The notes under the pieces were generated by a model. That model saw nothing but the letters and a program-made list of their open reading frames with translations. It ran no database searches and was not told the origin of the DNA. Below are positions 1 through 3,514 of a DNA stretch of 3,514 bases, piece by piece. Position 1 is the stretch's first letter; the number at the start of each line of letters is the position of its first letter. Location: IMG/VR virus record IMGVR_UViG_2778261692_000010; one strand, given 5' to 3'. The position numbers and the translations under genes were made by a program. The DNA is from a virus (lineage: Duplodnaviria > Heunggongvirae > Uroviricota > Caudoviricetes).

Positions 1-84
1 ATGGCGGGTTATTTGTCCTGGTTATTCCCCCGTTGTAAAATCTCTCCTAAACTTAACGGTACGGCACCACACTTCGGGGATGAA

Positions 85-276
85 ATGTTCGCGCTGGTAC
101 TTTTTGTTTGCTACCTGGATGGCGGTTGTGAAGATATTGTTGTGGATGTCTACAACACGGAACAGCAGTGTCTTTATTCTATGAGCGATCAACGGATCCG
201 CCATGGCGGTTGTTTTCCGATTGAGGATTTTATAGATGGTTTCTGGCGACCAGCACAGGAGTATGGTGATTTTTAA
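85..276 (+). CDS. yebW: Small uncharacterized protein, YebW-like (63 aa)
   Basis: ORF track gives 1..276, but the 63-aa product from the ATG at 85 (MFALVLFVCYLDGGCEDIVV...QEYGDF) matches my recollection of E. coli YebW. GGGGA at 76..80 sits 4 nt upstream of the ATG. TAA stop at 274..276. Synteny with pphA immediately downstream on the opposite strand. The start could instead be the ATG at 1; not resolvable from sequence alone. Confidence 0.6.
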   Translation: MFALVLFVCYLDGGCEDIVVDVYNTEQQCLYSMSDQRIRHGGCFPIEDFIDGFWRPAQEYGDF

Positions 277-933
277 TTATTGCAATTGCACAAGAGTCAG
301 TTCGCCCCCAAAGACAGCACCGGTATCAATATAATGCAGGTTGCCAATATCCACGCGATGTCGCAACGGTGTATGACCAAACCAGAAATGATCAGCACCT
401 GTAATTCCCTGCCCTTTTTGGCGTTCACCTAATCGCGAGCGGCTCCACAAGACCTGATGCAAATCAACGTCCTTTTGCCATTCATAAACATCATCTGGAT
501 AATCGGCATGAGCAATAACATGTTTGCCGGTACGACTGTGTACTTCAAGAATAAAGGGCAAATGCTGACATTTTTCCAGCGCCGTTTTCGCTTGTTTCTG
601 TTGATTATCTGCCAGCGCAATAAACCAGTCGCCGCCATTCATCAACCACAAAGACATCTGCTGGGATGCCAGCGCATCCATCGCCATCTGTTCATGATTG
701 CCTCTTACCGCACAAACCCAATGTTGTTCCAGTAACTGCAGACAACGTAAACTTTGCGGCCCACGATCGATAACGTCTCCTACTGAGATAAGTAAATCTC
801 GCCACGGATCAAAACGACAATGCCATAATTTGCGGCGCAACTGCTCAAGACAACCGTGTATATCGCCAGAAAGCCAGATATGTCGCCATTGATGACCCGC
901 AATTCTCTGATAAACGGGCGCAGGCTGTTTCAT
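277..933 (-). CDS. pphA: Serine/threonine protein phosphatase 1 (PPP-family metallophosphoesterase, lambda-phosphatase-like)
   Basis: 218-aa product starting MKQPAPVYQRIAGHQW... carries the metallophosphatase signature motifs GDIHG (aa 23-27), GDVIDRG (aa 52-58) and GNHE (aa 78-81). The ORF track begins one codon earlier at 934..936, which is TTG on the minus strand; the ATG at 931..933 is the likelier start, with GGAGG 9 nt upstream. Stop (TAA, as tta at 277..279) abuts the yebW stop. Matches my recollection of E. coli PphA/PrpA. Confidence 0.9.
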   Translation of the reverse strand: MKQPAPVYQRIAGHQWRHIWLSGDIHGCLEQLRRKLWHCRFDPWRDLLISVGDVIDRGPQSLRCLQLLEQHWVCAVRGNHEQMAMDALASQQMSLWLMNGGDWFIALADNQQKQAKTALEKCQHLPFILEVHSRTGKHVIAHADYPDDVYEWQKDVDLHQVLWSRSRLGERQKGQGITGADHFWFGHTPLRHRVDIGNLHYIDTGAVFGGELTLVQLQ

Positions 934-1067
934 CAATATTTTCCTCCCGCGCTAAAGATCACATAATCTTAACAAGAATGTTAAAAAACGCTGGACTCAG
1001 ACAGTAGAGTGTGTGTTATGGTTGACTATAAAGTCAGCGAAGGAAATGCTTCTGGCTTTTAACAGAT

Positions 1068-1100
1068 AAAAAGAGACCGAACACGATTCCTGTTTTCGTC
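1068..1100 (-). ncRNA. sdsR: Truncated 3'-terminal fragment of sRNA SdsR/RyeB (terminator hairpin region); likely prophage attachment core
   Basis: Plus strand AAAAAGAGACCGAACACGATTCCTGTTTTCGTC is the reverse complement of a U-tract plus hairpin. It matches my recalled E. coli SdsR 3' end (RC AAAAAGAGACCGAATACGATTCCTGTATTCGGTC) with 2 substitutions and a 1-nt gap or third substitution near its end. It lies about 135 bp beyond the pphA start, where sdsR is expected. Similarity ends at about 1100; the rest of the sRNA is not in the window. Comparison sequence is from memory, not a search. Confidence 0.5.
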
Positions 1101-1397
1101 AACAAACAACAAAATCTTTTAGAATTAATGTGTTAAATAAATTTATGCTCATCTTTTAATCTCTAACACGTACTATTACATATTAATACATTCAATTAGT
1201 TACCATTTTTTTCGAGTTTTTTAGAGAAATTTTCGGGAATATTTCAGGTCAATCCATGCATACACAAGCAATTCCTGTATTGAATAATTCCGTAGCAATT
1301 ATGTAAAATCATCTCCGGCTGATTTTCATTCAAACTCGCGCTATCGAACGTCCATCAGCCAGCCGTGGCACGTTCTTGCATACGACGTGCTACGGTT

Positions 1398-1952
1398 TCA
1401 TTTATCTCCGACTGGAAACTTCTTATACAAAGTCGATACGCCAACATCATAAATGATCGCCACCTTCTGGCGAGGAACTCCTGATGCAATTAGTCGCCCG
1501 GCCTGCGCCCATTGTTCTGGTGAAAGTTTGGGACGGCGACCGCCAATTCGTCCCTGTGCGCGAGCAGCTTCCAGTCCAGCTTTTGTTCGTTCAACAATCA
1601 GTTCACGCTCCATTTCAGCCAGGGCACCCATGACATGAAAAAAGAAACGGCCCATTGGGGTGCTGGTATCAATAGCATCCGTCAGGCTGCGAAAATTAAC
1701 GCCACGTTCGCGCAACTCCTCAACCAGAATGACCAGATGCCGCATACTACGCCCCAGCCGATCCAGCTTCCAGACAACCAGAGTGTCACCTGCCGATAAT
1801 GTCCTGAGCAGTTTTTTCAGTCCCGGCCTTTCGGACTTTGTACCGCTTATCTTGTCTTCAAAAATCAGCTCGCATCCTGCACAGTTCAACGCATTACGTT
1901 GTAGATCGGTATTCTGGTCATTTGTTGATACGCGTACATAGCCAATAAGCAT
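1398..1952 (-). CDS. pin: Site-specific DNA invertase, serine recombinase (Pin/Gin/Cin/Hin family)
   Basis: 184-aa product MLIGYVRVSTNDQNTDLQRNAL... has the catalytic serine in YVRVSTNDQ, a DRLGR motif and a C-terminal helix-turn-helix; near-identical in my recollection to e14 Pin and Mu Gin. Start chosen at the ATG at 1950..1952 (minus strand), which has AGGGAGA (1959..1965) 6 nt upstream. The ORF track's upstream extension to 1988 (MASFLLLSGRST) is probably not translated. Stop TGA at 1398..1400. Confidence 0.9.
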   Translation of the reverse strand: MLIGYVRVSTNDQNTDLQRNALNCAGCELIFEDKISGTKSERPGLKKLLRTLSAGDTLVVWKLDRLGRSMRHLVILVEELRERGVNFRSLTDAIDTSTPMGRFFFHVMGALAEMERELIVERTKAGLEAARAQGRIGGRRPKLSPEQWAQAGRLIASGVPRQKVAIIYDVGVSTLYKKFPVGDK

Positions 1953-1978
1953 GGTAGATCTCCCTGACAAAAGCAGGA

Positions 1979-2500
1979 ATGATGCCATTTGCTCGTTATT
2001 TCTGCATTTTCATAAACGTTGGTTTGGGAGAAGGCTCTGCATTACCTGTTGGTGTCCCTGTTCCGTGGCCTTCAGCCACACCGCCAACAGGCTGGCTGAA
2101 ATGCAACGGAGCAGCTTTTTCTGCTGAAGAATACCCGGAACTGGCAAAGGCTTACCCGACAAATAAATTGCCAGATTTACGTGGTGAGTTTATTCGTGGC
2201 TGGGATGACGGGCGTGGTATTGATGCTGGACGTGCTTTATTGAGCCTTCAGGCTGGGATGCTGGAAAAACACCGCCATATTGTTGTTGCCAATGATGGTT
2301 ACGACACAAAAGATGAATGGGAACTGGCTACGATTTTCAAAAAGACATACACACAAGGACGGGGACTTGATGCCACAAATACAGGAGGGAGTCTGATCCC
2401 ATCACCGACACTTCATTCACGAGGGAGTATCGGTAATACTGGCGGGAATGAAACCCGTCCACGAAATATTGCATTTAATTTTATCGTGAGGGCTGCATAA
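1979..2500 (+). CDS. Tail fibre protein, C-terminal variable (receptor-binding) cassette; promoterless fragment read away from the invertase
   Basis: Product contains ...ALPVGVPVPWPSATPPTGWLKCNGAAFSAEEYPELAKAYPTNKLPDLRGEFIRGWDDGRGIDAGR..., which I recognise as typical of Mu S / lambda Stf / e14 StfE C-terminal regions. There is no N-terminal shaft domain. An in-frame stop lies at 1955..1957, 24 nt upstream of the ATG, and the first ~18 codons span the crossover site, so the ATG at 1979 is unlikely to be a real start. Stop TAA at 2498..2500. Confidence 0.8.
   Translation: MMPFARYFCIFINVGLGEGSALPVGVPVPWPSATPPTGWLKCNGAAFSAEEYPELAKAYPTNKLPDLRGEFIRGWDDGRGIDAGRALLSLQAGMLEKHRHIVVANDGYDTKDEWELATIFKKTYTQGRGLDATNTGGSLIPSPTLHSRGSIGNTGGNETRPRNIAFNFIVRAA
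2007..2032. other. 26-bp crossover site for the Pin-family invertase (hix/gix/pix-like), one end of an invertible segment
   Basis: TTTTCATAAACG TT GGTTTGGGAGAA has imperfect dyad symmetry: two 12-bp half-sites (TTTTCATAAACG and, by reverse complement, TTCTCCCAAACC) around a central dinucleotide at 2019..2020. Its reverse complement matches about 20/26 positions of hixL as I recall it (TTCTTGAAAACCAAGGTTTTTGATAA). It lies 55 bp from the pin start codon and inside the start of the tail-fibre cassette ORF, as expected for these switches. Confidence 0.7.
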
Positions 2501-3102
2501 TGGATAACGCCGTATTAAATAGCGAGCTTATTGCCACGAAGGCGGGGAATATTACCGTCTATAACTATGATGGTAAAACTCGGGAATATATTTCCACTTC
2601 AAATGAATATCTTGCCATTGGTGTCGGTATCCCTGCATATTCCTGTTTAGATGCCCCTGGCACACATAAGGCGGGTTATGCTATCTGCCGTTCGATGGAT
2701 TTAAATTCATGGGAATATGTGCCAGACCATCGCGGTGAAATCGTCTATAACACCGAAACGGGAGATGCCAAAGAAATCACAGCACCGGGTGATTACCCCG
2801 AAAATACAACCACTATCGCCCCATTAACGCCATACGATAAATGGGATGGTGAGAAATGGGTGACCGATACTGAGGCACAGCATAGCGCCGCAGTAGACGC
2901 GGTAGAAGCACAGCGTCAGTCACTGATTGATACTGCAATGGCTTCCATTAGTCTGATTCAGCTGAAATTACAGGCCGGGCGGAAACTGACGCAGGCAGAA
3001 ACAACCCGGCTTAACGCTGTGCTGGATTACATTGACGCGGTGACGGCAACAGATACCAGCACCGCGCCGGATGTCATCTGGCCTGAACTGCCGGAGGCGT
3101 AG
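2500..3102 (+). CDS. tfa: Tail fibre assembly protein (Tfa/U family chaperone)
   Basis: 200-aa product with Tfa-like N-terminus (NITVYNYDG...) and the characteristic C-terminal motif DTSTAPDVIWPELPEA. Start ATG overlaps the upstream stop (TAATG at 2498..2502), indicating translational coupling; GAGGG at 2488..2492 lies 7 nt upstream. Stop TAG at 3100..3102. Confidence 0.85.
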   Translation: MDNAVLNSELIATKAGNITVYNYDGKTREYISTSNEYLAIGVGIPAYSCLDAPGTHKAGYAICRSMDLNSWEYVPDHRGEIVYNTETGDAKEITAPGDYPENTTTIAPLTPYDKWDGEKWVTDTEAQHSAAVDAVEAQRQSLIDTAMASISLIQLKLQAGRKLTQAETTRLNAVLDYIDAVTATDTSTAPDVIWPELPEA

Positions 3103-3514
3103 GCCATTCAATATCTGGCGCACTGGAAGTATCGACCAGCTCCAGTGCGTCCAGATAATCCAGCCACAGATTATATTGCGCCAGTTCCTCACCTTTCAGA
3201 CGACCAATAGCCGCTTTACCAGGCCATTGTTTACTGTTCATATAATCGTTGGCCTGATTAATCAGTTGCTGCTTTTCCAGTTCGGCTGCAGCAATCTGTT
3301 CCTCAGGTGTTGGTGGTGGAATTTCAGACCATGCAGGAAAACCATTTTCTCCAGCGATACGGATTTTTCCTTCCGGCGGTAATCCGGAAAACTCAATATA
3401 CACCTGCTCATCAACTTCAACAGCATCATCTGGCCATGAGTCAGCTTGAGTGTAATCCTCTTTCATTTCCAGTGGATAGAAAGAGTTTGTAGTCGCGGAA
3501 TATATGTAATTCAT
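3074..3514 (-). CDS. tfa: Tail fibre assembly protein (Tfa/U family), second copy, convergent; 5' end at the window edge
   Basis: 146-aa product ends in the Tfa motif DTSSAPDIEWPTPPAVQAR. The N-terminus MNYIYSATTNSFYP resembles the conserved IY..TN.F start of Tfa proteins, so the ATG at 3512..3514 may be the true start, but the frame could continue past the window. Stop TGA at 3074..3076. Overlaps the other tfa by 29 bp. Confidence 0.8.
   Translation of the reverse strand: MNYIYSATTNSFYPLEMKEDYTQADSWPDDAVEVDEQVYIEFSGLPPEGKIRIAGENGFPAWSEIPPPTPEEQIAAAELEKQQLINQANDYMNSKQWPGKAAIGRLKGEELAQYNLWLDYLDALELVDTSSAPDIEWPTPPAVQAR

Follow-up and report, generated by a model that had tools for sequence, protein, structure and literature searches.

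An e14 P-type invertible tail-fibre segment, very probably two-state, at the right end of a temperate myovirus prophage in Escherichia coli sdsR

In phages Mu and P1 and in the e14 element, inversion of a DNA segment swaps which variable C-terminus is fused to a constant tail-fibre N-terminus. The e14 element is a defective lambdoid element in icd, with mcrA next to pinE. Its invertible P segment goes back to Plasterk and van de Putte 1985, as cited in PMC4272514, and this e14 homologue of the locus described below flips in culture (PMC4272514; PMC12529663). Inversion of the e14 P segment creates StfE2, in which the stfE leader is joined to the StfP C-terminus and which blocks T2 adsorption, and a 16-bp repeat has been reported at this experimentally inverted segment (PMC12529663). 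Invertible tail-fibre segments are also known from P2-like prophages, for example in EPEC E2348/69 (PMC4272514).

Here we analysed a stretch of viral DNA of 3,514 nucleotides (hereafter the window). We conclude with high confidence that the window contains, of an invertible tail-fibre segment with two states and of the Pin type (Gin/Cin/Pin), the end next to the invertase, and that the segment is carried by a temperate myovirus prophage in sdsR. In essence, the switch is an e14 P segment carried by an apparently intact phage, and it is of a well-known, ordinary kind. The features of the window are listed in Table 1.

Table 1. Coordinates of the features identified in the window
Feature	Position	Strand	Evidence or remark
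E. coli chromosome: yebW, pphA, start of ryeA/sdsR	1-1098		K-12 match
attR core	1067..1098		Final stretch in common with uninterrupted K-12 ryeA/sdsR; prophage DNA from ~1099
Right end of the prophage	1099-3514		~42-kb temperate myovirus prophage, integrated in the sdsR 3′ end
pin, small serine DNA invertase, intact, 184 aa	1398..1952	-	Pfam Resolvase and HTH_7
Region homologous to the P1 cin recombinational (Fis) enhancer, putative	1863..1934	-	Homology only
pin-proximal 26-bp crossover site, TTTTCATAAACG-TT-GGTTTGGGAGAA	2007..2032		Central dinucleotide at 2019-2020
Collar-type variable tail-fibre C-terminal cassette, stfE-like	2020..2500	+	Phage Tail Collar domain, 1e-15
Hypervariable stretch within the cassette, probably the receptor-binding tip	2239..2449	+	Alignment gap
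tfa, tfaE-like tail-fibre assembly chaperone, 200 aa	2500..3102	+	Caudo_TAP, 1e-31
Second tfa, 146 aa	3074..3514	-	Caudo_TAP, 6e-38

Comparison with K-12 placed the end of chromosomal identity at position 1098. At the other prophage junction, read in NZ_CP066032, the K-12 match runs in from the yebY side, and the two K-12 matches overlap by 32 bp at the sdsR 3′ end; the prophage locus is sdsR, between yebY and pphA. The gap between pin and attR consists of only ~300 bp of AT-rich DNA, with no mcrA. A search of the window against Rfam at a permissive threshold returned sub-threshold matches only (SraC_RyeA at 1064-1184, CssrB at 1364-1420, and SAM-SAH), the first of them because ryeA is truncated at attR. 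Judged from the sequence, the switch is one without a structured RNA component.

A reading made earlier from the sequence alone had proposed a Pin-family invertase, and the gene was found to be intact. Its open reading frame spans 1398..1988, the ATG at 1952 is the likely true start, and the 184-aa product begins MLIGYVRVSTNDQ. The two Pfam domains were detected at 1e-51 (Resolvase) and 2e-14 (HTH_7), and the best match among solved structures was Mu Gin 3UJ3 (E 5e-93, residues 1-181 aligned), with a second Gin structure, 4M6F, matching at this E value too. Pin carries the catalytic Ser9 motif YVRVSTNDQ together with a C-terminal helix-turn-helix, the combination that defines small serine recombinases of the Gin/Hin/Cin/Pin (Din) group, and it is 95% identical to e14 PinE, 81% to P1 Cin, and 77% to Mu Gin.

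The putative enhancer was located through the P1 record, which annotates this element at nt 19-90 of the cin coding sequence, an interval that aligns with 1863..1934 of the window pin. Identity over this stretch amounts to 69/72 with e14 (96%), 55/72 with cin (76%), and 54/72 with gin (75%), only slightly above that of the rest of pin, in a stretch that doubles as the coding sequence of the catalytic motif, and this homology is confounded with coding constraint. Synonymous-codon conservation was only slightly raised, an excess too small to serve as evidence for an enhancer. A consensus promoter and terminator scan of the window, in which site counts lay within ~1.3 standard deviations of the shuffle mean, yielded no convincing promoter for pin and none for the cassette; on the plus strand, nothing resembling a promoter was found from 1953 to 2006, which is weak evidence for the promoterless cassette of the earlier reading.

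The crossover site had likewise been called from the sequence, and it holds up at 2007..2032, with 54 nt between the site and the pin ATG (67 bp when measured from the site centre). It agrees with the site next to pin in K-12 e14 at 26/26 positions, against 0 chance matches in 200 shuffles, and it includes the 16-bp repeat TTGGTTTGGGAGAAGG reported at the e14 P segment. When the window was scanned with a loose gix/cix/pix half-site pattern, this site was the sole match (chance expectation 0.00), and the homology breakpoint between the window and the flipped genomes fell within 2014-2033. The internal dyad symmetry is only 8/12 by manual count; we set it aside as weak evidence, and the case rests on identity to a known site and on the breakpoints, by which the identity of the site is established.

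The cassette lies in an open reading frame, 1979..2500, that reads away from pin and has the crossover site within its 5′ end. This frame, which opens at 1979 or 1982, starts with a short leader that precedes the crossover site and is not fibre sequence, and then runs through the cassette; the ATG lies upstream of the site and is therefore not the fibre's own start. Alignments of the cassette to contig L002 and to e14 both end at ~2238-2252 and restart at 2450, and the hypervariable stretch in between is probably the receptor-binding tip. The ATG of the 200-aa tfa overlaps the cassette stop codon (TAATG), the two genes being translationally coupled, and this tfa shares ~89% DNA identity with e14 tfaE. 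The second tfa is convergent with the first, the two overlapping over 29 bp at the 3′ end of the first. The cassette, the coupled tfa, and the convergent second tfa were all part of the sequence-only reading, and the domain matches in Table 1 agree with it on each.

The second site and the constant part of the fibre were read from proxy contigs. Exact matching with the 200-aa tfa, the 172-aa cassette protein, and PphA, whose allele is too common to discriminate, retrieved contigs that differ from the window at 4 or more positions and none that is identical throughout. Two of these, L016 (used as the main proxy) and L018, differ from the window at 4 bases, all within pphA, and are 100% identical to it in the phage part. 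Both contain a second site, TTCTCCCAAACC-AA-GGTTTTCGAGAG, in inverted orientation at 1868 bp centre to centre, which corresponds to 3875-3900 in window-equivalent coordinates, i.e., 361 bp beyond the window end. Its inner half-site is the same as that of the first site and the central dinucleotides match (TT versus AA), so that, with the partner taken from the proxies, the locus has the two inverted 26-bp sites with matching non-palindromic centres that characterize Din systems. The inverted partner was also found in L001, L002, L010, L011, and L015, in each case outside the window itself. An inverted second site beyond 3514 had been predicted at a distance of 2-4 kb: the site exists, and the segment, at ~1.9 kb, is slightly shorter than guessed. 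The source contig would carry this second site, TTCTCCCAAACCAAGGTTTTCGAGAG, ~361 bp beyond 3514, inside a fibre open reading frame of ~229 aa. A multi-site shufflon of the Min/p15B type was ruled out, as only two sites within 7 mismatches occur in the proxies.

In L016 and L010, the second tfa lies directly downstream of a 229-aa fibre gene, which encodes a Gp53-like_C domain, contains the second site, and itself immediately follows the genes for the baseplate wedge and baseplate J. The constant N-terminal part of the fibre, found in the proxies beyond 3514 where it had been expected, comprises only ~108 aa. In the orientation present in the window, the Gp53-like tip and the 146-aa tfa are fused, and the collar cassette and the 200-aa tfa are unfused. 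The window-identical contigs thereby support the earlier suggestion that the latter pair is the silent set, and they place the expressed set beyond 3514, with the Gp53-like tip in the 229-aa fibre gene and the tfa at 3074..3514 belonging to the fused set. The anatomy of the locus is established at this level.

We then compared the two orientations directly. Before inversion, L016 aligned with L009 in three pieces, the middle one (1880 bp) being reversed at 99.9% identity; when L016 was inverted in silico at the central dinucleotides, the two contigs became collinear in one 14.2-kb alignment. The inversion joined the collar cassette in frame to the 108-aa constant part, producing a 272-aa fibre with a Collar domain, followed by the 200-aa tfa. 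This simulated fibre differs at 2 residues from the real L009 protein and is also found as a real protein in L003. The C-termini are exchanged in frame, each with its own chaperone (229 aa plus the 146-aa tfa versus 272 aa plus the 200-aa tfa), as in a tail-fibre switch. Other E. coli genomes (L003, L009) carry the flipped arrangement, likewise at the pphA locus, with the segment 99.9% identical. Among complete E. coli genomes, with at least 80% query coverage required, the pin-collar junction was present in 82 and the pin-Gp53 junction in 34, and both sets include pphA-locus genomes. These comparisons demonstrate that the fusions are in frame and that both states occur naturally, the two orientations being found across different genomes. 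The switch is probably active, as far as such comparisons indicate, and we infer that it also flips within the source strain.

In the mechanism that we propose, Pin would bind the two inverted 26-bp sites, at 2007-2032 and, 1868 bp away, inside the fibre gene, and would presumably make staggered cuts at the central TT/AA, whereupon the segment would be inverted. Fis bound to the putative enhancer in the 5′ part of pin may aid this inversion, by homology with Gin and Cin. The ~108-aa constant N-terminus would remain fixed and would be fused either to the Gp53-like tip with the 146-aa tfa or to the collar tip with the 200-aa tfa; the window is in the Gp53-fused state, with the collar cassette and the 200-aa tfa currently unfused. 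The expected outcome would be two receptor specificities among the progeny phage, a form of host-range bet-hedging.

The same features could be left over in a decayed remnant, in which pin, one site, and the cassettes survive while the prophage is defective, and in which the segment may flip without changing the host range of any virion. e14, which shares the site and whose Pin is 95% identical, is itself a remnant of this kind, and some relatives of the present prophage are decayed: pin is frameshifted in L013 and L007, NZ_CP066032 has structural genes with frameshifts or interruptions, and a deletion has removed most of the prophage in NZ_CP025903. In the window, however, pin, both tfa genes, and the cassette open reading frame are intact, and the fibre, wedge, baseplate J, and spike genes are intact in three contigs that match the window identically or near-identically in the phage part (L016, L018, and L015). 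The nearest relatives have a full tail and baseplate module, one complete genome carries int through pin, and near-identical tail modules are present in the deposited phage genomes vB_EcoM-606R2, -611R5, and -683R1. The remnant, which the sequence-only reading had named as its own alternative, is therefore unlikely, although the source prophage could be defective even if the switch still turns. It is also conceivable that the two database orientations reflect fixed ancestral arrangements or assembly artefacts, with no ongoing inversion, given that the two-state evidence all comes from comparison between different genomes and that at least one short-read contig (L017) is oddly joined right at the centre of the crossover site, possibly through mis-assembly. 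We regard this as extremely improbable: flipped genomes share the segment at 99.9% identity while their flanks differ by 1-2%, a misfit with old fixed arrangements; the repeats, at only ~26 bp, are too short to confuse assemblers, and both states occur in complete genomes; and the e14 homologue, with the same site, flips in clonal cultures.

A host-serving role would follow if the pin-proximal open reading frame, consisting of the leader MPFARYFCIFINVGLGE and whichever cassette adjoins it, were translated alone and one orientation blocked the adsorption of other phages. The precedent is e14 StfE2, which acts against T2 (PMC12529663); the window agrees with e14 in its leader start (1979/1982) and in the site, and gene callers give a leader-fused open reading frame of 129-130 aa in the flipped genomes L003, L009, and L008. 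The Gp53-like tip, however, is ~36% identical to StfP, so the T2-specific effect is not transferable, and the consensus scan gave no promoter-like site for the pin-proximal frame. The leader would be conserved in any case through its overlap with the region upstream of pin, and the phage tail operon, complete as far as can be seen, accounts for the switch with no need of a host function. Such a role thus appears distinctly improbable, and it is very doubtful that the leader-cassette frame is an expressed, phase-variable host-protective protein like StfE2, with the switch doubling as a lysogen defence; if it were, the near-identical cassette pair common to unrelated prophages would spread through that benefit.

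Read as a Pin-type tail-fibre switch of the phage itself, the locus matters little beyond annotation. The e14 P-segment module, studied only in the defective K-12 remnant, is also present on an apparently complete inducible-type myovirus prophage, on which its presumed original role, host-range switching, is directly testable. The cassette pair, moreover, is mobile between prophages whose backbones are unrelated. In genome assemblies, the locus legitimately occurs in two orientations, which are not to be taken for mis-assembly.

Among the known systems, the e14 P segment with PinE shares the pin-proximal site and, at the distal site, the outer as well as the inner half-site. The order of pin, stfE-type collar cassette, tfaE-type tfa, convergent tfa (again with a 29-bp overlap), and fused fibre is the same, with ~91% DNA identity over pin and the 5′ part of the cassette and ~89% over tfaE. 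The carriers differ, being an apparently complete ~42-kb myovirus-tailed prophage at sdsR/pphA here and the 15-kb defective e14 at icd there. The fibre N-terminus is unrelated save for the last ~30 aa before the site, the identity of ~36% between the Gp53-like tip and StfP applies to the aligned C-terminal part only, and the hypervariable core of the collar cassette (2239-2449 here) differs. The segment measures 1868 bp centre to centre here and 1797 bp in e14 (PMC12529663), values that were perhaps measured differently and are not directly comparable. We ruled out that the element is e14 itself: the switch module is common to both, but integration in sdsR, the lack of mcrA, and different baseplate genes set the two elements apart.

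The Mu G segment follows the same logic, with a constant Sc part, two Sv/U sets, and an invertase that lies outside the segment with its 5′ end adjoining the site; 67 bp likewise separate the gin ATG from the crossover point, Gin is 77% identical, and gix shares the AAAC..GGTTT core with the window site. The central context of gix is C-TC/GA-G versus TT/AA here, the G segment is ~3 kb with much longer S proteins, and the transposable Mu is an unrelated type of phage. In the P1 C segment, Cin is 81% identical, its annotated enhancer aligns with the window pin, and cix has 19/26 positions in common with the window site (manual count), the TT/AA centre included; the 3′ end of cin adjoins cixL, whereas the 5′ end of pin adjoins the site here, and the C segment is 4.2 kb long. 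The same cassette pair (window 2014-3514) recurs, in either orientation and at 96.4-99.7% identity, in P2-like E. coli prophages (L004-L006), where the fibre N-termini joined to it are of the P2 H type. These prophages have a different tail module and a longer constant part, with fibres of 392-537 aa, and two of the three show greater divergence in the invertase, which has 88% DNA identity in L006 and gives no megablast match to the window pin in L005.

ORF listing and Pfam scans of the window recovered all of the elements described by the sequence-only reading, at the positions it had given.

Features called in the window by ORF listing and Pfam scans
Feature	Position	Strand
yebW	1-276	+
pphA	277-933	-
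Resolvase/HTH_7 protein (pin)	1398-1952	-
ORF with Phage Tail Collar domain	1979-2500	+
Tail-fibre assembly gene (tfa), Caudo_TAP	2500-3102	+
Second Caudo_TAP gene	3074-3514	-

The collar ORF ends in a stop codon that overlaps the ATG of the first Caudo_TAP gene (TAATG), and the two convergent Caudo_TAP genes overlap by 29 bp. The first position of the window is an upstream ATG for YebW, giving 91 aa, and the RefSeq version (63 aa) starts 84 bp further in; gene callers were divided between the two forms. The Pin protein (184 aa; catalytic motif YVRVSTNDQ) aligned from end to end with two structures of Mu Gin, 3UJ3 and 4M6F (E 5e-93), and was 95%, 81%, and 77% identical to e14 PinE, P1 Cin, and Mu Gin, respectively.

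The pin-proximal crossover site at 2007-2032, TTTTCATAAACG-TT-GGTTTGGGAGAA, matched the corresponding site of K-12 e14 at 26/26 positions, and was the sole match in the window to a loose gix/cix/pix half-site pattern. In a shuffle control for the 26-bp site, 200 shuffles yielded 0 matches at ≤3 mismatches. Its dyad symmetry was modest (8/12 positions by manual count). The site contains TTGGTTTGGGAGAAGG, the 16-bp repeat of the experimentally inverted e14 P segment (PMC12529663), and its centre lies 67 bp from the pin ATG, the same spacing as between gin and the boundary of the Mu G segment. For the DNA past 3514, we used the related contigs L016 and L018 as proxies; only four bases distinguish each of them from the window, all within pphA, and their phage parts are therefore identical to it. 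These contigs carry a second, inverted site, TTCTCCCAAACC-AA-GGTTTTCGAGAG, at the window-equivalent position 3875-3900, 1868 bp from the first (centre to centre). The inner half-sites of the two are identical, and the central dinucleotides agree when read as an inverted repeat. The second site falls within a fibre gene of 229 aa whose product has a Gp53-like domain at its C-terminus; this gene lies directly 3′ of those for the baseplate wedge and baseplate J proteins. Because the proxy contigs have only two crossover sites at ≤7 mismatches, we rejected a shufflon, and the segment is a simple two-state switch.

We then cut L016 in silico at both central dinucleotides and reversed the segment between them. 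This inversion placed the collar cassette of the window in frame behind the 108-aa constant N-terminus (which ends ...ALENLGLGE), and the resulting 272-aa fusion differed by 2 residues from an actual protein of L009, a contig in the flipped state. Before inversion, L016 and L009 aligned in three pieces, with the middle 1880 bp reversed at 99.9% identity; after inversion, they formed one collinear 14.2-kb alignment. The flipped state is present at the same pphA locus in both L003 and L009, and since the window aligns to them one way over 1-2033 and the other way over 2014-3514, the breakpoint lies inside the crossover site. In complete E. coli genomes, a query of attR, pin, site, and collar cassette in the window orientation reached a coverage of at least 80% in 82 cases, and the flipped query did so in 34. 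Both lists include matches reaching into attR-proximal phage DNA, so that some genomes of each state carry the module at the pphA locus. The inverted second site, the fibre gene around it, and the inversion test support the invertible tail-fibre host-range switch proposed by the sequence-only reading. Its assignment of the expressed and silent sets also held: the fibre now bears the Gp53-like tip with its 146-aa chaperone, and the collar cassette with its 200-aa chaperone is unfused.

Two related assemblies depart from this pattern. In L013/L007 (GCA_002993545.1), otherwise collinear, a 1-bp deletion frameshifts pin (L013:9418-9971), and the gene is called only as a 71-aa C-terminal fragment; because of this frameshift, the switch there should be locked in the orientation of the window, unless another Pin acts in trans. 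In L017 (GCA_024459055.1, 6454-11913), the baseplate-to-constant-fibre stretch stops exactly at the crossover centre and is followed by ~270 bp without a match in L016, a pin 5′ fragment, and the whole segment, which runs precisely to the distal crossover centre and there gives way to e14-type icd-flank DNA. Either the crossover sites of two prophages in one host recombined, or the short-read assembly was joined wrongly at the segment that both share.

That the two orientations are instead fixed arrangements or assembly artefacts is very improbable, as both the 99.9% identity of the flipped segments and the shortness of the repeats fit poorly with it. Decay of the module to a remnant in the source genome deserves more weight, given that some relatives have decayed, but it too is unlikely, because the fibre and baseplate genes are intact in contigs whose phage part is identical to the window. 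The pin-proximal leader ORF might also serve host defence, as claimed for e14 StfE2 (PMC12529663); however, no promoter for this ORF was found and the distal tip has diverged from e14 StfP (36% identity), which makes such a role rather doubtful here.

For the switch by inversion, the mechanism established for Gin, Cin, Pin, and Hin provides the model. By homology, Pin dimers would bind the two sites, the bound sites would synapse with a Fis-bound enhancer, and cleavage at the central 2 bp would be followed by rotation; Pin-type inversion has been described for e14 (PMC4272514, PMC12529663). In P1 cin the enhancer is annotated at nt 19-90 of the coding sequence, and the aligned stretch of pin (1863-1934) has an identity of 96% with e14 and of 75-76% with gin and cin. 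Because this stretch also codes for the catalytic motif and its excess of synonymous-site conservation is small, the Fis enhancer is inferred here as a putative element.

The window is collinear with K-12 up to 1098, within the ryeA/sdsR small-RNA locus, and in NZ_CP066032, a complete genome with the same element, the opposite junction matches K-12 from the yebY side. Given this end of collinearity and the 32-bp overlap of the two K-12 junction matches at the sdsR 3′ end, 1099-3514 is the right-hand end of a prophage that has integrated into sdsR, a locus characterized as an insertion hot spot (Balbontin et al. 2008, as summarized in PMC7380047). Integration took place within ryeA, where the sRNA gene sdsR (ryeB) has its 3′ end; a core of ~32 bp is duplicated, and the boundary is at ~1098/1099. 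The window thus keeps only the first ~69 nt of ryeA (1030-1098), which accounts for a sub-threshold Rfam SraC_RyeA match. Integration should change ryeA/sdsR expression beside pphA, by analogy with the Salmonella phage PhiW104, for which such a change upon integration has reportedly been described. Between attR and the pin 3′ end lie ~300 bp of AT-rich phage DNA without an ORF (1099-1397), including two overlapping promoter-like sites on the + strand (1261-1288 and 1280-1309) directed into pin antisense. CssrB, a Shigella sRNA encoded on the chromosome, has a sub-threshold Rfam match at 1364-1420 on the - strand (31.8 bits; gathering score, 76), which extends over the stop codon of pin and the next 34 nt. 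The match may be due to chance, or the Shigella family may have been built on the 3′ end of a pin gene.

In NZ_CP066032 the element is ~42 kb long and ordered int, xis, recET, immunity, Q, lysis, terminase, head, contractile-tail module, baseplate, fibre, invertible segment, and pin. Among deposited phage genomes, the nearest are those of Escherichia phages vB_EcoM-606R2, -611R5, and -683R1 (97% identity over the baseplate-to-pin region). The cassette pair (2014-3514) also occurs at 96.4-99.9% identity, in both orientations, in P2-like prophages and a further phage type with a DNA polymerase A / prim-pol replication module (L004-L006 and L008; segment 9508-11015 in L008). The fibre N-termini to which it is fused there are unrelated, and some of the copies adjoin more divergent invertases. 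L016 and L009 are 99.9% identical in the segment and ~98% in its flanks, which suggests recent lateral exchange of the whole pair between prophages.

The module is in all essentials the e14 P segment: the sites, the gene order, and the 29-bp tfa overlap are the same, and the Pin proteins are 95% identical. The element is not e14 itself, as its site is not icd and it has no mcrA. Unlike in e14, the carrier is another and apparently complete one, the fibre N-terminus is different, the distal cassette has diverged (36% identity to StfP), and the hypervariable core of the collar cassette (2239-2449) is a different one. The switch is one more case of a thoroughly known kind.
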